DNA of 38,657 nucleotides from positions 1 to 38,657 of the forward strand of contig CAVDWI010000002.1 in assembly GCA_963612485.1 (NCBI GenBank), read 5' to 3'. Positions 2,700-31,658 of the stretch are shown piece after piece (position 1 is the first letter of the stretch; every line of letters starts with the position of its first letter). The position numbers and the translations under genes were made by a program. The notes under the pieces are model-generated. The model was not told the origin of the DNA. It saw only the letters and a list, made by a program, of their open reading frames with translations, and ran no database searches. The DNA comes from Barnesiella intestinihominis (GTDB taxonomy: Bacteria; Verrucomicrobiota; Kiritimatiellia; RFP12; UBA1067).

Positions 2700-4223
2700 T
2701 TATTCGGTGATTTCGCCGTCCTTGAGACGCTTGAAGTAACTCCGCGTCTCCGCCACAACAACGCCCGAAAGCGCAATCAGGGCGATCATGTTCGGCACGG
2801 CCATCAGTCCGTTGAAGATGTCGGCGATTCCCCACACGGCGGAAATCGTCATGTAAGGCCCGATGAACACGGCGAGGATGTAGAGCCAGCGGTAGACGAA
2901 CACGGGGCCCATCCGCCCGTTCGTCAGGTATTCGAGGCAGCGCTCCGAATAATAGTCCCAGCCGAGAATCGTCGTGAAGCCGAAGAGCACGAGCGAAATC
3001 ATCACGAGCGCGTCGGTGACGACCGCCGGGAGGAACGGGATGCCCACGGCGAACGCCTTCATCGTCGCCTCCGCGCCCGTCGCGGCGCTCGCGCAGTAGA
3101 GTTCGGAAACGCCCTTGAACGATTCCGCCGAAACGGGCTGGCTCGTCATGGTCAGCGCAAGCCCCGTCATCGAGCAGACGATGATCGTGTCGAGGAACGT
3201 GCCGGTCATGGAGACGAGACCCTGACGCACGCACTCCTTCGTCTGCGCCGCCGCCGCCGCGATTGGCGCGGAGCCGAGACCCGCCTCGTTCGAGAAGATG
3301 CCGCGCGCGATGCCCTTCTGCATCGCCACGATGATCGCGCCGACGACGCCGCCCGCCGCCGCCTGGAAGCCGAACGCGCTCTTGACGATCGTCAGGAACG
3401 CCCCGGGGATCGCCTTGTAGTTGTAGCACACGAGGATCATCGCGAACGCCACGTAGAGGACGACCATGAGCGGGATCACCTTCTCGCTCACCTTCGCGAT
3501 GCGCTTCAGTCCGCCGATCAGCACGAGCCCGACGACGACCGCGAGAATGACGGACGCGATCACGGTCGACCAGCTGTAGGCGTTGCCGAGGATCGTCACG
3601 GCGCATTCCGTGTTCGGGTCGAAGAACTGCTTGATCGAACCGCAGATCGAGTTCACCTGCGAGAACGTGCCGATGCCGAAGAGGCCGACGCAGCACCCGA
3701 AGAACGCGAAGATGCAGGCGAGCCACTTCCACCGCTTGCCCATGCCGCGCTCGATGTAGTAGAACGGCCCGCCGAGAACGTGACCCGTCTCGGGGTCGTG
3801 GTCGCGGTATTTCACCGCGAGCAAGCCCTCGGCGTATTTCGTCGCCATGCCGAAGAGCGCGGCAACCCACATCCAGAACAGCGCACCGGGACCGCCCGCC
3901 ACGTACGCCGTCGCCACGCCCACGATGTTGCCCGTGCCGATTGTCGCCGAAAGCGCCGTGCAGAGCGCACCGAAACTCGTCACCTCGCCCTTCGCACCGT
4001 GCTCGACCTTCTCGTTCTTGAACATATACCGGAGCGCACGCGGCAATTGGATGAATTGCATTCCGCCCAGTCTGATTGTCAGGAAGATTCCCCCGAAGAG
4101 AATCAGTATAATAAGGAGTGGAACGGGGAATCCCCCGACCTCGAATGAGGTGCCCCAAACCTTGTCGTCCACAAGATTCACGTAGTCCGTGAATCGATCC
4201 AGCCACGTCGCCGTCGCCAACAT
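2700..4223 (-). CDS. Alanine/glycine:cation symporter (AGCS family)
   Basis: 507-aa polytopic ORF with LSATIGTGNIVGVATA..GGPGALFWMW, the AGCS signature. Preceded by a glycine riboswitch. Confidence 0.9.
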   Translation of the reverse strand: MLATATWLDRFTDYVNLVDDKVWGTSFEVGGFPVPLLIILILFGGIFLTIRLGGMQFIQLPRALRYMFKNEKVEHGAKGEVTSFGALCTALSATIGTGNIVGVATAYVAGGPGALFWMWVAALFGMATKYAEGLLAVKYRDHDPETGHVLGGPFYYIERGMGKRWKWLACIFAFFGCCVGLFGIGTFSQVNSICGSIKQFFDPNTECAVTILGNAYSWSTVIASVILAVVVGLVLIGGLKRIAKVSEKVIPLMVVLYVAFAMILVCYNYKAIPGAFLTIVKSAFGFQAAAGGVVGAIIVAMQKGIARGIFSNEAGLGSAPIAAAAAQTKECVRQGLVSMTGTFLDTIIVCSMTGLALTMTSQPVSAESFKGVSELYCASAATGAEATMKAFAVGIPFLPAVVTDALVMISLVLFGFTTILGWDYYSERCLEYLTNGRMGPVFVYRWLYILAVFIGPYMTISAVWGIADIFNGLMAVPNMIALIALSGVVVAETRSYFKRLKDGEITE

Positions 4224-4234
4224 GAGTACTTTTA

Positions 4235-4346
4235 CTACCTTTCCGTCCTTTTGCCTGAGAGATTGCCCGCGACCCTTTTCGCGAACTTACACCTTCGGCA
4301 CCCGACACCATGTCGGGCTTCTCCGGACACCGCATCTGCGGTACTC
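4235..4346 (-). promoter_or_regulatory. Glycine riboswitch, single aptamer, in the 5' leader of the AGCS symporter
   Basis: Minus-strand transcript reads ..CCGGAGAAGCCCGACAUGGUGUCGGGUGCCGAAGGUGUAAGUUCGCGAAAAGGGUCGCGGGCAAUCUCUCAGGCAAAAGGACGG.. It contains the conserved GGAGA, (C)CGAAGG and CUCAGGCAAAAGGAC cores (plus-strand 4319-4324, 4292-4298, 4245-4259). Hairpins lie between them: CCCGACA/UGUCGGG and CGCGA/UCGCG. Confidence 0.75.
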
Positions 4347-18271: not shown

Positions 18272-20503
18272 ATGTTCAGATCTCTGACTGTCGTTTACCT
18301 GCATAAGCCAAGCCGCGTGGACTCAAAGCGTCTACCCGTTATCGAATACGGCCTTGCCGACGCCTTCCGCGAGTTCTGCCGAGAGACGTTCGACATGCGC
18401 GGTCCGCAGGACTATCCGCCGCTTCGCCTGACGGCGACGAACTCGGTGGAGGGGCTCGCGAAGACGCTCTTCACGAGCGGCGGTTCACGCGGCGTTTTGA
18501 CGGAACTCGGTCGCGCCTGCTGCCTGTTTCTCATCGACGACGACTTCATCGGACAGTCCGTCGCGGGCAAGGACTTGCGCGACTGGCTGAAGCTCTTCTT
18601 CCCGGCGATTCCGAAGGTCGTTCTCACGCATCCCGGACGCGGCGACATCGCGCTTCCGGCGCGGCGGTGGATCAAGAAGGATGCCGTCGTCTTCGAGCGT
18701 CCGTCGAAGCACCACGAGCGCATCGTTCATCTCTTCAAGAGTTTCTGGATGCCGCGCTTCGCGACCGCCCTGCGCCAGTACGTGCAGGTGAAGGCGGGGA
18801 CGAACTGGCATACGCCGGGACACAACGGCGGCCGCGCCTTCGAGGATTCGCCGTTCCTCGCCGGCTTTTACGCGGCGTTCGGCGGCACGATCTTCCGCAC
18901 CGACCTCTCCGTCTCGGTCGAGCCTCTCGGCGACCTTTCCAGCCCCGAGGCGCGAACGCCGCTTTCCGAGGCGCAGAAACTGACGAGCGAAATTTTCTGC
19001 TCGGCGCAGAGTTGCTACGTCACGAACGGGACATCGACCTCGAACAAGGCGATGCTGATGACGCTCCTGCGGCCGGGCGAAGTCGTCCTCATCGACCGCA
19101 ACTGCCACAAGAGCGTCCACCACGCCGTCGTCACGTCGGGGGCCGTGCCGCGCTATCTGCCCGCCCACTGGAATGCGAGTCTCGGCGTGTGGGGGCCCGT
19201 TGCGCTGGAGGATGTGAAGAAGTCGCTGGAAGCCCACGTCGCCTCCGAGGCGGAGCGTCCGCGTCTCCTGATCCTCACGACCTGCACCTACGAGGGAATC
19301 CTCTATCCCGTGTGGGAGATTGCGCGACAGTGCGAGAAGGCGGGTGTGTTGTTCTATGCGGACGAGGCGTGGGCGGCCTATCTGAACTTCCATCCCTACT
19401 ACACGTTCGGGCGCGGGGGCGGCGACGCCGTGCGCTACAACGCGGTGAACGAGACGTGCGGGGCGCATTTCGCGGTGCAGTCCACCCACAAGACGCTCGC
19501 GGCGTTTTCGCAGGCCTCGATGATCCACGTCTCGACCCGCTTCAAGCAACTTCTCGAGGACGACTCGTCGCCGTCCTTCCGATGGCTGCGCCGCCGCTTC
19601 GCGCTGCACGGGCGCGGCAGTTACGAGAAGTTCTCCCACGACCTCCACGAGTTCCTGCGCTACTGGCACTCGACGTCGCCCCATTATCCCTTCCTTGCGG
19701 CGCTGGACGTGGCGGGCGTTCAGATGCGCCTCGAGGGTCTGAAGGTCATCGACGAGCGCATCCGCTGGGCGGCGGCGTTCCGCAAGCGCGTGGCGGACGA
19801 ATGCGGACTGCCGGAGAACGCCTGTTTCGCCGGGCTCGACGAAATCGCCGGAAAGGGCTTCGACTGGCGTGGGCAGGGCTACATGAAGGATCCGCTCAAG
19901 ATCGTCCTCATGCTCCGTTCGCCAAAGGCGTGCGCAACCTTCCGCAAGATGCTTCTCAAGGCGCACATCCGCTGGGAAAAGGCGAGCGCGACGACGATTC
20001 TCTTCCTCGTCACGGCGGGGACGGTGGAGGAGCATTTCGAGTATCTCTTCCGCGTCTGCCGCCAGTACAAGCGGCTCATCGGTTCGCCCGCCGCGTCCGC
20101 ACGGTCGAACGGCCGCCGTGAGAAGTGCGCCGCGCAATCCGTCATTGAGGCGGTTTCGGGTCAGGCCGTCGTCCTGCCGCACGACGCCGCGCTCTGCGAC
20201 GGCGAACTCGTGCCGATTGACGAAGCCGAGGGACGCATCGCCTCGCAGTTTCTCGTTCCGTATCCGCCGGGCATCCCCGTCTTCATCCCCGGCCTTCGCA
20301 TCACGAAGCCCATGATTCGGCTCATCCACGACGTGATATCGACGGACGGGGCGGGGGCGGTGCACGGTCTCTTCTGCCGCGGCGGACACGCCCCCTATCT
20401 CGTCGAAGTCCTCAATAAGGATGAGGAATCCCGCGTTCGAACGCTTGGCGAACAGCCACATGGGAATATGATAAAATCTCCGTTCTCCAACCGTGACAGG
20501 TAA
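18272..20503 (+). CDS. Fold-I PLP-dependent Orn/Lys/Arg decarboxylase (large biodegradative-type architecture)
   Basis: About 743 aa with an N-terminal wing domain. NWHTPGHNGG and STHKTLAAFSQASMIHV (PLP lysine) motifs. C-terminal domain with YPPGIP. Confidence 0.85.
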   Translation: MFRSLTVVYLHKPSRVDSKRLPVIEYGLADAFREFCRETFDMRGPQDYPPLRLTATNSVEGLAKTLFTSGGSRGVLTELGRACCLFLIDDDFIGQSVAGKDLRDWLKLFFPAIPKVVLTHPGRGDIALPARRWIKKDAVVFERPSKHHERIVHLFKSFWMPRFATALRQYVQVKAGTNWHTPGHNGGRAFEDSPFLAGFYAAFGGTIFRTDLSVSVEPLGDLSSPEARTPLSEAQKLTSEIFCSAQSCYVTNGTSTSNKAMLMTLLRPGEVVLIDRNCHKSVHHAVVTSGAVPRYLPAHWNASLGVWGPVALEDVKKSLEAHVASEAERPRLLILTTCTYEGILYPVWEIARQCEKAGVLFYADEAWAAYLNFHPYYTFGRGGGDAVRYNAVNETCGAHFAVQSTHKTLAAFSQASMIHVSTRFKQLLEDDSSPSFRWLRRRFALHGRGSYEKFSHDLHEFLRYWHSTSPHYPFLAALDVAGVQMRLEGLKVIDERIRWAAAFRKRVADECGLPENACFAGLDEIAGKGFDWRGQGYMKDPLKIVLMLRSPKACATFRKMLLKAHIRWEKASATTILFLVTAGTVEEHFEYLFRVCRQYKRLIGSPAASARSNGRREKCAAQSVIEAVSGQAVVLPHDAALCDGELVPIDEAEGRIASQFLVPYPPGIPVFIPGLRITKPMIRLIHDVISTDGAGAVHGLFCRGGHAPYLVEVLNKDEESRVRTLGEQPHGNMIKSPFSNRDR

Positions 20504-20504
20504 A

Positions 20505-21002
20505 ATGAAAAAACAAGCGAATACGATTTCAAAGACTTCGTCCTGCGCCCAGCGCGGGCTCAAGGTGTCGGCAAAAACCCGCTACGGACTGCGCATTCTG
20601 CTCGATGTCGCCGCGCACACCCGCGATGCGAAGCCGCGCTCGATTGCCGAGATCTCCAAGGCGCAGCGCATTTCGGAGAAGTTCATCTCTCGGCTCGTCA
20701 TTCCCCTGCGCGAAGCGGGGCTGATTCGCTCGGTGCGCGGTTCGGGCGGCGGCTTTCGTCTCGCACGCTCGACCGAAGACATCACCCTGCTCAAGGTCGT
20801 CGAGACGATGCAAGGTCCTCTCGCCATCCTCGACTGCCTGTCGGATGCGGAAAACAGCTGTCCGCGCAAGCCAAACTGCCTTGCGCGGCAGATCTGGTCG
20901 GATGTCAACACCGGATTTATGAACGTGCTTGCCCGCGTCACCCTTGCGAAAATCCTCGACCGTTCGCCCGATGAGGCCGCCGCGATGGACTTCTGCATCT
21001 GA
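20505..21002 (+). CDS. Rrf2-family transcriptional regulator with a putative Fe-S ligand triad
   Basis: SAKTRYGLRILLDVA wHTH start and GGGFRLAR motif. Cys triad C-x7-C-x5-C (DCLSDAENSCPRKPNC). Start is uncertain: ATG 20505, or an internal GTG nearer the Rrf2 core. Confidence 0.8.
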   Translation: MKKQANTISKTSSCAQRGLKVSAKTRYGLRILLDVAAHTRDAKPRSIAEISKAQRISEKFISRLVIPLREAGLIRSVRGSGGGFRLARSTEDITLLKVVETMQGPLAILDCLSDAENSCPRKPNCLARQIWSDVNTGFMNVLARVTLAKILDRSPDEAAAMDFCI

Positions 21003-21087
21003 CAGATGCCCTCCGAGAGCCTCTTGCGCGTCCATTTCGTCCCTCTTCGCGACAGTTTGCGTCGAGACTCGTCTCCGTCAGGGTCTC

Positions 21088-21246
21088 CTACTCCATGACG
21101 AACACGGCGGAGAGGATGCGTCCGAGCCAGCGGTGACGCGCCCACCCCCAGCAGAACGGCAGCGCGGCGCAAAGGAATGCCGCCGCGTGGTTCGGGTTCG
21201 CGAACCCGAACCCCTGCCGCACCCACTCTCCGCACGTGAATTCCAT
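21088..21246 (-). pseudogene. Possible remnant of an O-antigen ligase/polymerase-like membrane protein (52 codons)
   Basis: MEFTCGEWVRQGFGFANPNHAAAFLCAALPFCWGW.. resembles the G.F.NPNH.A..L...LP motif, which normally sits internally in Wzy_C/O-antigen ligase proteins. The ORF is short and lies at the GC-rich/AT-rich junction. Confidence 0.25.
21189..21212. repeat. Perfect 24-bp palindrome GGTTCGGGTTCGCGAACCCGAACC
   Basis: Self-complementary over all 24 nt. Read directly from the sequence. Confidence 0.95.
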
Positions 21247-21276
21247 GGATAACTTTCTTGGCAATATCGGCAGCGG

Positions 21277-21564
21277 CTATTTTAATTGACGCGACCTATT
21301 CGCCCGAAAGACAATTTCTCTCATGTGCGTTTCAAGATTGCCAAGATAGGCATCCATTTCAGAGGAATGCTTTGACTCCAAGTCGCGCAATTCTCGAGGA
21401 ATTGTTTTTGCACAAATGAGTATGGACTTGTTCCGTTCGCTTCGTTTCCGGCTGTGCAGAAGCATAGAAGTTCCAAAGCCAGCACAGAAAACAAACAGAA
21501 AAGCGACAACCATGAAACATATCCTTCTCATAACGACTTCTTTTCCCACAACCATTTTTGCCAT
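21277..21564 (-). CDS. Candidate immunity protein (small, N-terminally membrane-anchored) for the upstream Rhs-tip toxin
   Basis: 95 aa, AT-rich, 19 nt downstream of the toxin stop on the same strand. One hydrophobic segment (ICFMVVAFLFVFCAGFGTSMLL) followed by a charged soluble part. No family recognised. Confidence 0.55.
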   Translation of the reverse strand: MAKMVVGKEVVMRRICFMVVAFLFVFCAGFGTSMLLHSRKRSERNKSILICAKTIPRELRDLESKHSSEMDAYLGNLETHMREIVFRANRSRQLK

Positions 21565-21583
21565 TGAAGGCCGAACTTGTCAC

Positions 21584-22219
21584 TCAAATGCCGATTGATG
21601 GAGTTTGGCGTAAGAATTCCGGAACTACTGCAAATTGTAGACGTTTCCACTCGTAAGCAGTATTTTTTAAGATTCTCATAATCTCCGAAGAGTTGCTATC
21701 CTCATCGTCAAGACAAATACACCCATGCGACGCAGAGGCCGGAGCAATGACCAGTCGAATATGTGTCCTAACAGCCCCATTTGGACCTTCAGCTATGTCA
21801 TCAAGTTTACTGTCGCCTGCATACCACAACTGGAATCTTTCCGCACCTGGATGTGCAATTATATACCAAAGACCCAATGGCAAAACGCCACTTGCTATCC
21901 ACTGATGAGCAAGATTCATATCGCCAGAATAGGCAGTAACCCCAAGCATTTTCCCAGTCTTATCATCCCTCATTGCAAACACCGCATCTGAAATCTTAAA
22001 TACACATCGAGCATACGCACCATATAAATCCACATAGTCCGTTACTCCATTCCTACAATATGCGAGTTGATTCCAGCCGTCGGGGTAGCCGAGCGGGTCG
22101 GCAGTCTGCCACTTGGCGAGGTCGGGGCGGTAGTTGCGGCAGAGGAACGCCCGCCCGAGGCCCTCGACGAGCGGCTTTTCCCCTTTGATGAACTTTTCAT
22201 TTGAGCTTTTCACGCCCAC
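21584..22219 (-). CDS. Orphan Rhs/YD C-terminal tip fused to a Tlde1/DUF2778-like (L,D-transpeptidase-fold) toxin domain
   Basis: FLCRNYRPDLAKWQTADPLGY..NQLAYCRNGVTDYVDLYG is the Rhs core-end motif (RxYxPxxGRWxxxDPxG...NxYxYxxNxPxxxxDPxG). The AT-rich CT follows, with GVLPLGLWYI and THIRLVIAPASASHGCICLDD (H...SxGC, YkuD/Tlde1-like). No Rhs core lies upstream. Start is uncertain: GTG 22219 or GTG 22213. Confidence 0.7.
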   Translation of the reverse strand: MGVKSSNEKFIKGEKPLVEGLGRAFLCRNYRPDLAKWQTADPLGYPDGWNQLAYCRNGVTDYVDLYGAYARCVFKISDAVFAMRDDKTGKMLGVTAYSGDMNLAHQWIASGVLPLGLWYIIAHPGAERFQLWYAGDSKLDDIAEGPNGAVRTHIRLVIAPASASHGCICLDDEDSNSSEIMRILKNTAYEWKRLQFAVVPEFLRQTPSIGI

Positions 22220-22228
22220 ATTATACCA
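22220..22228 (-). promoter_or_regulatory. Extended -10 element TGGTATAAT (minus strand) directly upstream of the Rhs-tip ORF
   Basis: Plus strand ATTATACCA. On the minus strand TGGTATAAT-GTGGGC-GTG places the second GTG (22213) 6 nt after the -10. Confidence 0.45.
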
Positions 22229-22281
22229 AAACTCACGGCGGAATTCCTCCCTTACCCTTATCCCGTTTTATAGAATCATTT

Positions 22282-22298
22282 TGTCCCATTTCGGGACA
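22282..22298. promoter_or_regulatory. Palindromic upstream activator site TGTCCC-N5-GGGACA (candidate enhancer-binding-protein site)
   Basis: Perfect 6-bp arms, centred about 50 bp upstream of the -24 element. An extra TGTCAC half-site is at 22303-22308. Confidence 0.45.
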
Positions 22299-22339
22299 GT
22301 TTGTCACATCCGCTCCGCCATATTCGGTCGATTTGCCGT

Positions 22340-22354
22340 TGGCACGGGCTCTGC
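22340..22354 (+). promoter_or_regulatory. Sigma-54 (-24/-12) promoter upstream of hsp20
   Basis: TGGCACGGGCTCTGC compared with the consensus TGGCAC-N5-TTGC: exact GG/GC spacing. Lies about 47 nt upstream of the hsp20 ATG, which has an AAAGGAG SD. Confidence 0.6.
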
Positions 22355-22400
22355 TCATTCGTTTGATGTTGAAACAAACGAAATGAAAGGAGTTCAAGAT

Positions 22401-22814
22401 ATGAACACATTGATGAATATGGATCCGTGGGGCTTTCTGGATGAGCTGTTCGATGCGAACAGCCGCGCATTCAGAAGCATGAGGGCTCGCGCCGCCGGAC
22501 GCTTCCCGCCCGTGAACGTGTTCTTGGACGATGACGCAGTGATTATCGACCTGGAACTGCCCGGAAAAACGGCGAAGGACGTGACGCTTACCCTCGAACC
22601 CCAGGCGGTCGTCGTGGCCGACAGGCCCGCCGAGGAGACCGACGCGAAGACCGGCAAGCCCGTCGAGACGCGCCCCGCATGGAGCCGCCGACTGGAACTG
22701 CCCTTCCGCGTGAACGCCGACAAGGCGAACGCGAAGTTCGAGAACGGCATTCTGCGCATCGAACTGCCGAAGGCGGAAGCCGACGGCGTGAGGCACATCG
22801 CCATTCAGGGCTGA
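22401..22814 (+). CDS. Small heat-shock protein (Hsp20/alpha-crystallin family)
   Basis: 137 aa. Alpha-crystallin domain with V.V.LPG..K.DV.. and FENGILRIELPK. SD AAAGGAG. Confidence 0.85.
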   Translation: MNTLMNMDPWGFLDELFDANSRAFRSMRARAAGRFPPVNVFLDDDAVIIDLELPGKTAKDVTLTLEPQAVVVADRPAEETDAKTGKPVETRPAWSRRLELPFRVNADKANAKFENGILRIELPKAEADGVRHIAIQG

Positions 22815-22850
22815 ACGTATACCATCTATAAGAAGGAAAGGAGACTCAAG

Positions 22851-23186
22851 ATGAACGAAGAGAAATTTGTGGTTCCGACAGCGGTGCTTTCGGAAAGGCC
22901 GGACGAATACGAACTCAGGATCGAAATCCCCGGCATTGGCAAGGATGAGACGGAGTTGCATGTCGAGGGCAAGACTCTCACGCTCAAGACGCACGCGAAA
23001 TACCAGAACCCAGCCGGGTTCAAGCAGGTCGCGGCGGAATTCGAGCGGCAGAATTACGCGATGAGCGCCGACTTGCCCGAACTTGCAAACCCCGCCGCAC
23101 TGACCGCGAAACTGGAGAACGGCGTGCTGACGGTCGTGGTGAAGAAACGCGCCGAAATGCAGGCGAAGAAGATCGAGATTCACTGA
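22851..23186 (+). CDS. Small heat-shock protein (Hsp20 family), short paralogue
   Basis: 111 aa. YELRIEIPGIGKDE..LHVEG..L and LENGVLTVVVKK. SD AAAGGAG. Confidence 0.8.
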   Translation: MNEEKFVVPTAVLSERPDEYELRIEIPGIGKDETELHVEGKTLTLKTHAKYQNPAGFKQVAAEFERQNYAMSADLPELANPAALTAKLENGVLTVVVKKRAEMQAKKIEIH

Positions 23187-23203
23187 TTGCAAATCCGTTC
23201 GCC

Positions 23204-23249
23204 AAAAGACCCCGATACGCCGCGTGGCGCATCGGGGTCTTCCTTTTTC
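23204..23249. terminator. Rho-independent terminator between convergent hsp20 and lysC
   Basis: Stem AAGACCCCGAT (23206-23216) pairs with ATCGGGGTCTT (23231-23241), followed by CCTTTTT. Confidence 0.8.
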
Positions 23250-23265
23250 AGACAGCGGATTTCGT

Positions 23266-24633
23266 TCAGCGGCCGAAGAACGCCTTGTAGAGGGCGCGAA
23301 CCGCCGCGTCGCGATCCTGCTGGCGGATGGCAATCATGAACGAGACTTCACTCGAACCCTGATTGACCATCGACATCGAAATGCCCGCCGAGGCGAGCGC
23401 GAGGCACGCCTTCGCGAACATACCCGGCGTATAGCACATGCCTTCGCCGACAATCATGATGATCGTGATGTCGCGCTCGACCGCCACGCTGTCCGGCTCG
23501 AGTTCGCGGCGAATCGACTGCACGACGCGGCGTTCTTTCTCCTTCGGGAGATTTACGCCCTTCACGACGACGCACTGCGAGTCCACGCCCGAAGGCATAT
23601 GCTCGTAGGCAATGTGCTCGTCCTCGAGAATCTGGAGAAGGCGACGACCGAAGCCGATGGCGCGGTTCATCAGGTATTTCTCGACGACGATGTTGCAGAA
23701 GTCGTCCTGCGAGGCGATGCCGACCACCGTGCCGGGCACGACCCGCCGCGACTGCACGATCATCGTGCCGGGTTCGGACGGATGGTTCGTGTTGCGGATG
23801 TTAATCGGGATTCGCGCCCGTACGGCGGGAATCACCGCGTCGTCGTTGAACACGCCAAAGCCCGCGTAGGCGAGTTCGCGCATCTCACGGTAGGTCATCG
23901 TCGGTATGCCCTCGCCGTCCTTCACTTCGGGGACGATGCGCGGATCGACCGGGTAGACGGAGTCCACGTCGGTGAAGTTCTCGTAGACGTCGGCGCAGAC
24001 CGCCGCCGCGAGAATCGAGCCGGTGATGTCGCTGCCGCCGCGCGGGAAGGTGGCGACCTTACCCTCCTTCGTATAGCCGAAGAAGCCGGGGTAGATGACG
24101 ATGCCGTCGAAGTTCGAGAAGGCACGGGAGAGCGTGGAGTAGCTGGACGGGTCGAGCGTGGCATCGCCGAACTCGCCCATCAGCACCATCCCCGTCTCAC
24201 GCGGGCTCGCATACCGCGCCTTGCGTCCGCGAGCCGTGAACGCGACCGCCACGAGTTTCGCATTGTCGTCCTCGCCCGCCGCCTTCATCAAGTCCATGAA
24301 CTCTGCCGCCGACAGCTGGTCGCGCTGGGCGAGACGGCTACGCAGGTCGTTCTCAATCTCGTGGACGATTTCGTCACCGAGCTTCAGTTCCGTCGCGATT
24401 CCCGCATAGCGCTCGACCACGGCCCCATAGGCGCGGTCGGTGTTCTCCCCCGCAAGTGCCGCGTTCGCGAGCGCAATCAGCAGATCCGTCACCTTCGTAT
24501 CGCCCGAATGCCGCTTGCCGGGGGCGGAAACGACCACGATTCGCCGCGTCGGATCCGCCAGAACGATGTCGATTACCTTGTTGAGCTGCGCCGCATTGGC
24601 GAGCGAACTACCACCAAACTTACAGACTTTCAT
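23266..24633 (-). CDS. lysC: Aspartate kinase
   Basis: MKVCKFGGSSL start and VVVSAPG. C-terminal ACT-like repeats. Adjacent to hom. Confidence 0.9.
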   Translation of the reverse strand: MKVCKFGGSSLANAAQLNKVIDIVLADPTRRIVVVSAPGKRHSGDTKVTDLLIALANAALAGENTDRAYGAVVERYAGIATELKLGDEIVHEIENDLRSRLAQRDQLSAAEFMDLMKAAGEDDNAKLVAVAFTARGRKARYASPRETGMVLMGEFGDATLDPSSYSTLSRAFSNFDGIVIYPGFFGYTKEGKVATFPRGGSDITGSILAAAVCADVYENFTDVDSVYPVDPRIVPEVKDGEGIPTMTYREMRELAYAGFGVFNDDAVIPAVRARIPINIRNTNHPSEPGTMIVQSRRVVPGTVVGIASQDDFCNIVVEKYLMNRAIGFGRRLLQILEDEHIAYEHMPSGVDSQCVVVKGVNLPKEKERRVVQSIRRELEPDSVAVERDITIIMIVGEGMCYTPGMFAKACLALASAGISMSMVNQGSSEVSFMIAIRQQDRDAAVRALYKAFFGR

Positions 24634-24665
24634 CGTTTTCTCGAATTCTCAAATGCCCTGCAATC

Positions 24666-25958
24666 TCAAAGGACGCGAAGCGCAACCGGCTCGCCGGCGA
24701 TCAGCCCCGACTTCGCGATTTCCGCGAGCGCCGCCGTCAGGTCGGCCGTCTTCGCCTCGTGGGTCAGCACGGCGACCGGGGCGAACCCGTCCGTCCCCGC
24801 CGCCTTCTGTGAGGCCGCCGAAATCGACACGCCGTGCGCACCGAGCGCCGTTGCAATCTGACCGAACGCGCCCGGCTTGTCCGTCACGTTGAAGCGCAGG
24901 TAGAAGGAGGATGAAATCTCACCCGCCGCACGGAGTTTGACCTTGCCCTCCGCATAGTTGGGGATGGCGCGGGCGTATCGCGTCTCGCCGTGCGCGAGGT
25001 TGCGGGCGATGTCGCCGATGTCGCCGACAACCGTCGAGGCCGTCGGCGCACGACCAGCGCCACGTCCGTAATACATCGTGTAATCGCTCATGTCGCCCTT
25101 CACCCACGCCGCGTTGAAGGCGTCGTTCACCGAGGCGAGCATGTGCGTCATCGGCACGAGCGTCGGCCCGACGCCGACCTCCACCTCGTCGCCGACACGC
25201 GCAACACGCGCAAGAAGCTTGATGCGGTAGCCGAAGTCCGCCGCGTAGCGGACGTCGTCCCCGGCGAGATTGCGGATTCCCTTCACGTCGACTTCCTCAA
25301 CCTTCGGCTGGAAGCCATACGCCAGCGCGGCGAGAATGCAGGCCTTGTGAGCCGTGTCGAAGCCATCGATGTCGAGCGAGGGGTTCGCCTCGGCGTAGCC
25401 GAGTTTCTGCGCGTCGCGCAAGACCTCGTCAAACGGCAGCCCCTCGTTCTCCATCCGCGTCAGAATGTAGTTGCACGTGCCGTTCAGGATGCCGTGGATG
25501 GATTCGATCCCGTTCCCGGCCAGGCCTTCGCGGAGAACGCGGATAATCGGGATGCCGCCGCCGACGGAAGCCCCGAAGTAGATGTCCACGTTGTTCTGAG
25601 CCGCCGTGTCGAAGATTTCCTTCCCGTATTCCGCCAGCAGTTTCTTGTTCGCCGTCACCACGCACTTGTGGTTGGCGAGGGCGTCAAGAACGAATGTCTT
25701 GGCGATGCCCGTGCCGCCAATCGTCTCGACGACAATCTGCACTTCGGGGTCGGCAATCACGCTCTTCGCGTCCGTCGTCAGCACGCCCTCCGGCACGGGG
25801 ACCCCGCGATCCGTCGTAATGTCCAGGTCGGCAATCTTCCGCAAGACAATGTCCACGCCGAGACGCTTCGCCATGACGTCGCGGTGCTTCAACAGCCCGT
25901 CCGCGACACCTGCGCCAACCGTCCCGAATCCGAGTATACCAACGCCAATCTGCTTCAT
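24666..25958 (-). CDS. hom: Homoserine dehydrogenase
   Basis: GILGFGTVG NAD-binding loop, a catalytic-domain body recognised as homoserine dehydrogenase, and a C-terminal ACT domain. Confidence 0.9.
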   Translation of the reverse strand: MKQIGVGILGFGTVGAGVADGLLKHRDVMAKRLGVDIVLRKIADLDITTDRGVPVPEGVLTTDAKSVIADPEVQIVVETIGGTGIAKTFVLDALANHKCVVTANKKLLAEYGKEIFDTAAQNNVDIYFGASVGGGIPIIRVLREGLAGNGIESIHGILNGTCNYILTRMENEGLPFDEVLRDAQKLGYAEANPSLDIDGFDTAHKACILAALAYGFQPKVEEVDVKGIRNLAGDDVRYAADFGYRIKLLARVARVGDEVEVGVGPTLVPMTHMLASVNDAFNAAWVKGDMSDYTMYYGRGAGRAPTASTVVGDIGDIARNLAHGETRYARAIPNYAEGKVKLRAAGEISSSFYLRFNVTDKPGAFGQIATALGAHGVSISAASQKAAGTDGFAPVAVLTHEAKTADLTAALAEIAKSGLIAGEPVALRVL

Positions 25959-26038
25959 CTGTATGAATCCTTCTTTCCGTCAGAAAACGGCATATTTTAC
26001 TCTTTTTCGCCGAGCAAAGTCAATGCGTTCACAGAATA

Positions 26039-29822: not shown

Positions 29823-31658
29823 TCAAAGGGAGACGCTGAGTCCGCAGACTTCGGGTTTGAGCGAAATGCCGAAGCGGAAATAGACGCGATTGTGCATGAG
29901 CCGGGCGAGCGCGAGGAAGTCCGATGCGGTAGCATCCGCCCCCGAAACGATGACATTCGCGTGTTCCGACCAGACCGTCGCGCCGCCGACGCGCAAATCC
30001 TTCGCCCCCGCCGCCTCGAGAAGCCGTCCCGCGAAATCGCCGGGCGGATTCTTGAAGACGCTTCCCTTCGTCCCCGGCGGAAACCGCTTTCGCCGCGACA
30101 GGTAGTCCGCCGCGTCCGTTGCCGCCGCATTGTCGGACAGGGGCTTCAGCACGAAGTCCTGAATCTCGCCCGTGATGTCCGAATGGCGGTAGGCGAAGCC
30201 GCAGTCCTCCGCCGAACGCCAGACGCCATCCACCTTGACCCGCGCAATCACTTCGGAAATCGAATGACCGAACGCGCCCGCGTTCATGCGGATCCAGCCG
30301 CCGACCGTGCCGGGAATGCCGGCCATCCACGGAATGCCGAGACTTGCGCCCGGCTGACCCGCGGGTCCCTCGGTCTTCACGTAGACCTCGCCCGTCTGAA
30401 GGTCGCTCTTCCACGTGTTCGATCCCGCGCCAATCCAGATTCGCTTCTCGGTCGGGGGCATCCACGACCGCACGAGCGGCGCGAGGTCGATGATGTCGCC
30501 CGCGCCGAGCAATAGCGCAATGTCCCCTTCTCGCATCACGAGCCGAGCATGACCCCACGCCTCCTTGCACGAACGCGCCAACTTGACGGGCACGCCCCGT
30601 GCGCGGCATTCCGCGTAGAGATCCGCAATGTCGCCCCCCTCCACGGGTTTCTCGAACGCCGCGTAGGTCGGACAGAGAATCACCTCGTCCGCCCCGGCGA
30701 ACGCGGCGGGGAAGTCAGCGAGCAGCGCCTTCGTGCGCGAATAGCGGTGCGGCTGGAAAAGAACGCGCAACTTGCCTCGACAGACTGCCCGCGCCATTGA
30801 AACCGCGCAAGCCATTTCCGTCGGATGGTGGGCGTAGTCGGTGTAGACCCCCTCGCGCAACTTCTGGAAACGGCGGTCGGGGAGTTCCGCGACGACACGC
30901 GGCAGAACCGCCGCGATGGCGTCCGCCGAATGGCCGCGCCGCAGGGCGACTTCAACGGCGGCGCGGGCGTTCTTCCTGTTGTGCGGCGCGAGGTTCAGCA
31001 ACTCGACGAAGCCGAGCGGCGGCAGAGTTTCGCTTTCGATGACCGTTCCCGCCTGTTCCTTCGCCGTCGCGTAGCAGGCGGCATACGCCTCGGGCGTCTT
31101 GAAATGGTCGGGGTGGTCGTATTCGCAGTTCGTGACGACGAGCGTCCGTGCGTGGTAAAGTGCGAGCGTGCCGTCGCTTTCGTCCGCTTCCACGACCAGC
31201 ACGGGCGGACGCGCCGCCGGGCCTTCGCACCCGGCGACGGGGAACGCCCCCGTTTCGCCGCCGATCGCCCACTCGACGCGCTCGCCGAGGGCGAGCAGGA
31301 GTTTCGCCGCGAAGGTCGAGGTCGTCGTCTTGCCGTGCGAACCGCAGACGGCGACAGCGTCACATCCGTTCACGACTTCCGCGAGCATTTCGCCGCGAAA
31401 GCGCAGGATGCCGCGTTCGGCGGCCTCGCGGCGTTCGGGATTCGCCTGCGGCACGGCGGGGGTCATCACCACGCAGTCCGCGCCCGCGACGTGTTCCGCC
31501 GCATGGCCGAACCGCACGGGGATGCCGAACCCCTCAAGCCACTTCGTGCGTGGCGTCGGGCGCAGGTCGCAGCCCGACACCTCGTGCCCGCGCTCCTTCA
31601 TAAGGAACGCGAGCGCGGCCATCCCGACGCCGCCGATGCCCGTGAAGTGAACCTTCAC
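29823..31658 (-). CDS. murC: Fusion protein: UDP-N-acetylmuramate-L-alanine ligase (MurC) + UDP-N-acetylenolpyruvoylglucosamine reductase-like (MurB) C-terminal module
   Basis: Residues 1 to about 398 are MurC: FTGIGGVGM, GSHGKTTT, EADESDG, DYAHHPTE. Residues about 403-611 are MurB-like: GAGSN, GIPGTVGG..MNAGA.G, F.YR.S, GS.FKNPPGD.AG.L.E, GGA.V...HAN..V, G..L.PEV. One continuous 611-aa frame. Confidence 0.85.
   Translation of the reverse strand: MKVHFTGIGGVGMAALAFLMKERGHEVSGCDLRPTPRTKWLEGFGIPVRFGHAAEHVAGADCVVMTPAVPQANPERREAAERGILRFRGEMLAEVVNGCDAVAVCGSHGKTTTSTFAAKLLLALGERVEWAIGGETGAFPVAGCEGPAARPPVLVVEADESDGTLALYHARTLVVTNCEYDHPDHFKTPEAYAACYATAKEQAGTVIESETLPPLGFVELLNLAPHNRKNARAAVEVALRRGHSADAIAAVLPRVVAELPDRRFQKLREGVYTDYAHHPTEMACAVSMARAVCRGKLRVLFQPHRYSRTKALLADFPAAFAGADEVILCPTYAAFEKPVEGGDIADLYAECRARGVPVKLARSCKEAWGHARLVMREGDIALLLGAGDIIDLAPLVRSWMPPTEKRIWIGAGSNTWKSDLQTGEVYVKTEGPAGQPGASLGIPWMAGIPGTVGGWIRMNAGAFGHSISEVIARVKVDGVWRSAEDCGFAYRHSDITGEIQDFVLKPLSDNAAATDAADYLSRRKRFPPGTKGSVFKNPPGDFAGRLLEAAGAKDLRVGGATVWSEHANVIVSGADATASDFLALARLMHNRVYFRFGISLKPEVCGLSVSL

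Follow-up and report, generated by a model that had tools for sequence, protein, structure and literature searches.

An Rhs tip and a small gene between Rrf2 and Hsp20 genes

The window analysed here, a 38,657-nucleotide (nt) stretch of contig CAVDWI010000002.1 (assembly GCA_963612485.1), possessed on its reverse strand a pair of open reading frames (ORFs): a 211-amino-acid (aa) ORF with a GTG start (21584-22219), carrying the C-terminal tip of an Rhs protein with a putative toxin domain, and, after a gap of 19 nt, a 95-aa ORF (features are listed in Table 1). An earlier sequence-only reading, made without database searches, had described the two as a toxin and its immunity gene standing alone between an Rrf2 regulator and heat-shock genes. 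The location was as described, with an Rrf2 regulator gene (20493-21002, +) and two Hsp20 genes (22383-22814 and 22851-23186, both +) adjoining the pair. GC content was 40-48% across 21277-22060 versus 60-68% in the flanks.

Residues 28-67 of the toxin ORF (RNYRPDLAKWQTADPLGY...DYVDLYG) matched positions 35-75 of the 76 positions of TIGR03696 (Rhs_assc_core) with an E value of 3.6e-7. At 30.6 bits the score was just under the curated cut-off of 32.5 bits because only the second half of the core domain was present. The core-end motif RxYxP...DPxG[LY]-x18-DxxG, which marks the boundary of the toxin tip, was found, and its residues were invariant in our alignment A1. The toxin ORF was matched by 403 database proteins at E<=1e-3, mostly via the Rhs tip alone; a Pfam scan of the whole ORF gave no match, including none to the RHS/YD repeat families PF05593 and PF25023, and an identical-protein look-up of the toxin returned no record. 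No rhs shell or full-length rhs gene was found in the window, where a tblastn search with two Rhs shells matched only the tip and a gene fragment, 'frag', described below. This bears out the view that a core-end motif lies near the start of the ORF with no repeats upstream, and that the gene is an Rhs C-terminal tip without its shell: the ORF held only the core end and the C-terminal domain (CT), and no repeats were found across the window.

A Tlde1/YkuD-like domain without the canonical histidine

Scanned alone, the window CT matched PF10908 (Tlde1) with an E value of 0.23 and 12.3 bits, which does not reach the gathering cut-off of 30.1. Fourteen database proteins spanned the toxin domain at 41-54% identity, the four nearest (P0001-P0004) at 50-54%, and eight of the 14 had a precomputed PF10908 match. 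When the aligned CTs were scanned one by one, 12 of 13 sequences (window CT included) matched PF10908 at E<=1, with a best value of 9.2e-12, and four matched YkuD; the relationship of the sub-threshold window CT to PF10908 is therefore a transitive one. A profile search with the CT found 611 representative clusters at E<=1e-3, several of them at the C-termini of proteins of 1269-1959 aa. No relative turned up when metagenomes were scanned with the CT domain, and a sequence search of the PDB with profiles A1 and A2 returned only the Rhs shell 7Q97 and marginal L,D-transpeptidase matches, Tlde1a not among them.

An AlphaFold (AF2) model of the CT alone reached a pLDDT of 85.3 and a pTM of 0.81. 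Searched against the PDB with Foldseek, its top nine matches were all chains belonging to five cell-wall enzymes of the L,D-transpeptidase type (Pgp2, an Acinetobacter baumannii Ldt, Bd1075, a YkuD protein and DpaA), with modest figures: TM-scores of 0.39-0.56 (query-normalised), probabilities of 0.6-1.0 and E values of 0.013-0.19. A model of the full-length toxin ORF gave the same fold matches. Transitive homology and predicted fold together support a Tlde1/YkuD-like identity for the window CT, below the threshold for direct membership of PF10908, and on this point the sequence-only reading was upheld.

The motifs from which that reading had recognised a 144-aa domain were present exactly as written, GVLPLGLWYI at aa 111-120 and H153-x10-S164HGCICL. 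The motif residues of Tlde1a are H121, S128, H129 and C131 (PMC9638812). In the window, S164-H165-G166-C167 corresponded to Tlde1a S128-C131, with S, G and C invariant in A1 and A2, and the position of H121 ('RLH' in most of the family), 10 residues before C167, was occupied by Val157. The proposal that H-x10-SHGC is the catalytic motif is not supported by this alignment: H153 was not conserved, as the nearest clade has N, W or A in its place, and the canonical His position is Val157. In that clade (P0001-P0004, P0009, P0127 and P0130) the H121 equivalent was V or T and SHGC was always kept, and nearly all other representatives had His. More widely in A1 and A2, a His-less Tlde1-like subset comprised these seven proteins plus P0157 and P0176, in which the 'RLH' His is replaced by V, T or G; a further His-less protein, P0181, had SDGC. 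As all nine members of the subset keep the His of SHGC, their sequences suggest an alternative Cys-His arrangement.

Both ends of the toxin ORF are aberrant

A syntenic locus (L007) matched the window at 20462-21106 (88% nt identity) and at 22202-26025 (93%), with an unrelated 304-aa low-GC gene between the two blocks. Pairwise alignment with L007 placed the junctions of the variable cargo at ~21103 and ~22190, with conserved inner ends of 45 nt and 87 nt. The 5' end of the toxin ORF lay outside the right junction: 22190-22228 aligned nearly base for base with L007 10340-10380, which there lies upstream of a different gene. The TGGTATAAT box, the GTG and the first nine or so codons belong to the flank, since L007 also has them and the junction is at ~22190. 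The box directly adjoined the GTG, with its TATAAT hexamer ending one base before the start codon, so that a transcript from this hexamer would begin inside codons 2-3. No Shine-Dalgarno sequence was found upstream of either early GTG (codon 1 or codon 3), and a consensus promoter scan did not report the box since a -35 element is lacking. In the conserved flank a short distance upstream of the toxin ORF, at 22235-22250 (-), a strong GGAGGA-N8-GTG start opened an ORF of only eight codons. It is also present in L007 and may encode a leader peptide or be a relic.

At the 3' end, a C-terminal [YF]G.[LI].V.E strand that was found in 12 of 12 aligned homologs and in nearly all of ~150 representatives was absent from the window toxin. 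Its place was taken by DNA of another gene. The region 21285-21620 was 93% nt identical to a locus designated L005, 84% to 8674-9011 of L001 and 82% to L006, and covered the 3' end of a 104-aa small-transmembrane gene together with the 95-aa-type gene; the peptide GILTPNSINRHLSDKFGLQWQKWLWEKKSL* matched the C-terminus of the 104-aa protein of L001. An apparent extension of the 104-aa homology to 21689 was rejected as alignment over-extension, the true homology beginning near 21620. A possible second case of a truncated tail, in P0004/P0006, was discounted: the difference lay at the very end of a contig matching L001 at 91-99.7% and is a probable assembly edge.

The 95-aa gene is not the expected partner

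The 95-aa protein had one strong hydrophobic segment at aa 10-28 (2.31 in a 19-residue Kyte-Doolittle window), in agreement with the single N-terminal transmembrane segment reported by the sequence-only reading for the gene 19 nt downstream of the toxin. Only three relatives were found (P0121, 89%; P0122, 73%; a copy in L001, 71%), and the family aligned with the 104/98-aa small-transmembrane family in hhalign with a probability of 82% (E 1.1e-5). That the ORF is neutral non-coding DNA, as an aa identity lower than the nt identity might suggest, was rejected: the ratio of nonsynonymous to synonymous substitution (dN/dS) was 0.23-0.58, versus 0.09-0.13 for Rrf2 and Hsp20, indicating a real gene.

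Homologs of the 95-aa gene came after the paralogous 104-aa gene in L001, L005 and L006. In L001, the one locus read further upstream, the 104-aa/95-aa-type pair came after a different toxin tip (CT1, AMAYDP... type), and the CT1-type toxin in L013 was followed by a 98-aa small-transmembrane protein. All three clade-mates of the window toxin with readable downstream DNA (P0002 in L001, P0001 in L002 and P0009 in L015) were directly followed by a member of a ~148-aa family (148a), of which no trace was found in the window. Pfam searches with the CT1, 104-aa, 148a/b and 304/305/324-aa proteins gave no informative family. Gene order and homology thus place the 95-aa gene with a different Rhs toxin type, and its proposed role as the cognate immunity gene of the window toxin was not supported.

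These results bear on whether the pair is a functional stand-alone module, in which a Tlde1-like mini-toxin with a promoter of its own would be neutralised by an adjacent, periplasm-facing 95-aa immunity protein. The toxin ORF is intact and has the SHGC motif, the 95-aa gene follows closely, encodes a transmembrane segment and is under purifying selection, and orphan Rhs toxins of Salmonella can use internal promoters and act as toxin-antitoxin modules (PMC7043789). Even so, we consider such a module highly improbable. The start codon and the promoter-like box belong to flank DNA that a toxin-less relative also has, the -10 hexamer abuts the GTG with no Shine-Dalgarno sequence, the terminal strand of the toxin is missing, and the partner of this toxin clade is of the 148a type, with 95-aa homologs found behind other genes. 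Lacking a signal peptide, a toxin that acts on peptidoglycan has no access to its substrate from inside the cytoplasm, and the charges of +3 and +4 flanking the transmembrane segment do not discriminate between topologies of the 95-aa protein. The suggestion of an independently promoted mini-toxin was not supported, its box and start being shared with toxin-less L007 and its 3' end truncated.

The segment resembles one unit of Rhs-tip arrays

Between the 95-aa gene and the left junction, 'frag' encoded MEFTCGEWVRQGFGFANPNHAAAFLCAALPFCWGW..., which was 68-69% aa identical to the start of a 710-aa Rhs ORF in L001 and to an intact 411-aa gene in L013. The intact gene encodes a high-GC membrane protein with a weak Wzy_C match (E 0.002) and closes an array of Rhs tips in L013/L014; 'frag' ended after ~50 codons, and L007-type flank resumed at ~21103. 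Copies of the N-terminus of the 411-aa gene also start short Rhs ORFs in L001, L011 and L013. We rejected the reading of 'frag' as a non-coding repeat built on a 24-bp palindrome: AT-rich L011 keeps the peptide and not the DNA, which identifies 'frag' as coding sequence. The palindrome itself (21189-21212, GGTTCGGGTTCG|CGAACCCGAACC) is perfect; the homology to L006 breaks within it, which makes it a candidate hotspot for deletions.

Arrays of short Rhs-tip ORFs were found in gut metagenomes at L013 4215-12743 (also in L014) and at L001 6306-16917, on contigs that appear to derive from gut Kiritimatiellae. No full-length rhs gene was found within 10 kb of the L013/L014 arrays. Two of four array ORFs clearly started with the duplicated N-terminus of the 411-aa Wzy_C-like gene and a third kept a degenerate trace, so that these tips have a start codon of their own. 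As the cargo of the window spans from an Rhs tip to 'frag', it corresponds to one unit of the L001/L013 arrays with internal deletions. The arrays shared with the window the same tip sequence, the small-transmembrane family and the 'frag' boundary. Unlike the window, which holds a single damaged unit elsewhere in the chromosome, they comprise several units, with an intact Wzy-like gene at the end.

The same comparison bears on the idea that the segment is a silent reserve, a still-usable recombination cassette for an rhs gene. The core remnant comprises ~57 codons, with 82-87% nt identity to four Rhs tips of L001. Arrays of tips like it occur in related genomes, and orphan modules that keep the core upstream of DPxGL are a known feature of Rhs systems (PMC3150448). 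Through recombination, however, an rhs gene would acquire a toxin truncated at its C-terminus and no cognate partner gene along with it, and the 38.6-kb window has no rhs gene. A recombination cassette, as the sequence-only reading had also proposed, is thus conceivable, and weakened by the truncated domain and missing partner gene to the point of being unlikely.

A probable mosaic remnant of an Rhs orphan array

At the level of sequence, the segment proved to be a chimera of three truncated modules, with a toxin that lacks its shell, terminal strand, canonical His and partner gene. We interpret the ~1.1-kb segment as a mosaic and partly deleted remnant of an Rhs orphan array in a variable slot, and not as a functional stand-alone module, and put the probability of this reading at about 0.7. 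The first piece would comprise the last ~57 codons of an Rhs core and a Tlde1/YkuD-like domain, minus its last ~20 residues and a ~148-aa partner gene. The second would comprise the last ~30 codons of a small-transmembrane gene and the intact paralogous 95-aa gene, which elsewhere accompany a different Rhs toxin type, and the third the first ~50 codons of the gene for a Wzy-like membrane protein, the normal closer of an array. The 211-codon ORF would owe its existence solely to a deletion that fused the Rhs tip, in frame, with a GTG present by chance in the flank.

No signal peptide or transmembrane segment was found in the 211-aa product, which, if made at all, would therefore stay in the cytoplasm. 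As the cytoplasm offers no substrate to a peptidoglycan-directed enzyme, the product would be harmless there and need no immunity. With no shell, signal peptide or delivery domain and with an incomplete fold, it would be neither delivered nor toxic to the host. The 95-aa gene may have been retained as an immunity-type orphan that protects against attacks from kin, in line with what has been proposed for orphan immunity genes in general (PMC3150448).

Several observations weigh against a decayed remnant. The ORF is open for 211 codons in DNA of ~45% GC, which implies either recent decay or maintenance of the ORF. The window CT retains the S-H-G-C nucleophile motif and most of the residues that are invariant in the family, and AlphaFold places the substitute tail as the final strand, at low confidence (pLDDT 51-65). 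The dN/dS of the 95-aa gene points to purifying selection, the link between the toxin clade and the 148a family comprises three loci, and a full-length rhs gene may lie in the genome beyond the 38.6-kb window.

Table 1. Coordinates of the features in and around the Rhs tip, in window positions.
Feature	Position	Strand	Basis
Left copy of 27-nt direct repeat	21033-21059	+	Same pair around the L007 slot
Variable low-GC cargo of the Rrf2-Hsp20 slot (~1.1 kb)	~21104-22190	-	Rhs tip, toxin domain, small-gene remnant, 95-aa gene, gene fragment
'frag', N-terminal ~50 codons of a Wzy_C-like membrane protein gene, truncated where the flank resumes	21104-21264	-	Aa identity to L001 and L013
95-aa single-pass membrane protein gene, orphan member of the small-transmembrane family	21277-21564	-	Three relatives; dN/dS; hhalign
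3'-end remnant of the 104-aa small-transmembrane gene, overlapping the toxin tail in another frame	21528-21620	-	Nt homology; peptide match
Aberrant toxin tail, aa 194-211 and stop, in place of the conserved terminal strand	21584-21640	-	Motif absent; low pLDDT
Tlde1/YkuD-like toxin domain, aa 68-193, S164-H165-G166-C167, Val157 at the canonical His position	21641-22018	-	Homology; PF10908; AF2; Foldseek
Rhs core-end remnant, aa ~11-67, ending DPLGY-x18-DLYG	22019-22189	-	TIGR03696 match; L001 identity; A1 invariance
Flank-derived 5' end: TGGTATAAT box (22228-22220), GTG (22219-22217), ~first 9 codons	22190-22228	-	Aligns with L007 10340-10380
Right copy of 27-nt direct repeat, ~80 nt upstream of Hsp20	22277-22303	+	Same pair around the L007 slot

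A variable slot flanked by direct repeats

The content of the Rrf2-Hsp20 slot differed among the window, L005 and L007. In L005, 90-93% nt identical to the window where comparable, genes of the 104-like, 82-aa and 305-aa types ran up to the stop codon of Rrf2. More distant Rrf2 loci (L008-L010) had no Hsp20 neighbour, which makes an ancestral empty slot unreadable. L007 lies on CAVFWY010000031.1, from a GTDB representative filed as Gemmiger sp., and is 88-93% nt identical to a window of 65% GC; the other relatives of the window are metagenome-assembled genomes of Kiritimatiellae, and synteny between L007 and the window stops immediately left of Rrf2. The L007 contig is probably mis-binned.

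A direct repeat of 27 nt (CATTTCGTCCC..TTCG.GACAGTTTG), which has an inverted GTCCC-N5-GGGAC as its core, flanked the slot on both sides and recurred at 8853-8879 and 10410-10436 of L007, around different cargo. Two candidate identities for the repeat are an att-like site and an operator, duplicated, close to the promoter of Hsp20. If att-like, the repeats would make the slot a cassette-exchange site into which cargo is inserted as a unit, a scenario compatible with later decay. The conservation of the repeat pair around different cargo, and of the 45-nt and 87-nt inner ends around a variable interior, would fit such exchange. Against this, no recombinase was found in or next to the slot, L005 is without the left repeat, the comparison of repeats covers two genomes only, and an inverted core close to the Hsp20 promoter may simply mark a duplicated operator; we therefore regard an exchange site as very unlikely.

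It is a long shot that Rhs tips in these gut bacteria are handled as units reaching from the tip to the copy of the Wzy-like 5' end, each tip thereby gaining a start codon, with the Rrf2-Hsp20 slot and its 27-nt repeats as a second landing site. If true, this would be a capture of polymorphic-toxin cassettes distinct from C-terminal displacement behind a full-length rhs gene.

Comparison with known systems

Enterobacterial orphan rhs-CT/rhsI modules (Poole et al. 2011, PMC3150448; a Salmonella orphan, PMC7043789), like the window, combine an Rhs core end (DPxGL region) with a variable toxin tip, followed by a small downstream ORF, and have a low-GC foreign composition and no shell or delivery part. 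Unlike these modules, the tip studied here does not trail a full-length rhs gene within the 38.6-kb window, its toxin is also 3' truncated and takes its start codon from the flank, and its toxin type has a partner gene other than the small one next to it. The segment works like and derives from the known orphan rhs-CT/rhsI class, with a Tlde1-type tip, and fails several features of an intact module.

With Tlde1a, a type VI secretion system (T6SS) effector of Salmonella Typhimurium (PF10908, PDB 7UMA, PMC9638812), the window CT shares a small single-domain, L,D-transpeptidase-like fold (here as predicted), the S-H-G-C motif and the spacing, 10 residues separating position 157 from Cys167 as they separate H121 from C131. 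Unlike Tlde1a, it reaches only 12.3 bits against PF10908, has Val for H121 and lacks the C-terminal strand. Tlde1a is a free T6SS cargo, whereas the window CT is fused to an Rhs tip, with no Tldi1-like partner and no T6SS genes in view, and structure 7UMA was not among its fold matches. The best structural matches of the predicted CT were Pgp2 (6XJ7), Bd1075 (7O21), the A. baumannii Ldt (8DA2) and DpaA (8IKR); unlike the CT, these YkuD-fold enzymes, at 11-16% sequence identity, are housekeeping, periplasmic proteins with accessory domains.

The segment is probably an ordinary decay product, one more and damaged member of the well-known orphan Rhs tips, and has little import alone. It illustrates that an intact-looking pair of toxin and small gene can be a chimera of unrelated modules. 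Two side observations may merit follow-up: the His-less, SHGC-keeping Tlde1-like clade, and the arrays in which duplicated Wzy-like N-termini start Rhs tips.

Neighbouring genes and other features of the window

Among the window ORFs scanned with Pfam (20 of ~28 high-confidence ORFs), no secretion-system genes were found and all were housekeeping, including a penicillin-binding protein, MraW, MurC/MurB, RNase II, an electron transfer flavoprotein and an acyl-CoA dehydrogenase. To the right of the Hsp20 genes lay two genes that we took, by eye from their translations and without a Pfam scan, to encode an aspartate kinase and a homoserine dehydrogenase. A glycine riboswitch aptamer (4233-4336, -, 50.5 bits) was situated directly upstream of a sodium:alanine symporter gene (2700-4223, -). 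At 29823-31658 (-), one 611-aa ORF encoded both Mur ligase (MurC-like) domains and the C-terminal domain of MurB, so that the genes of two enzymes of peptidoglycan-precursor synthesis appear to be fused here.

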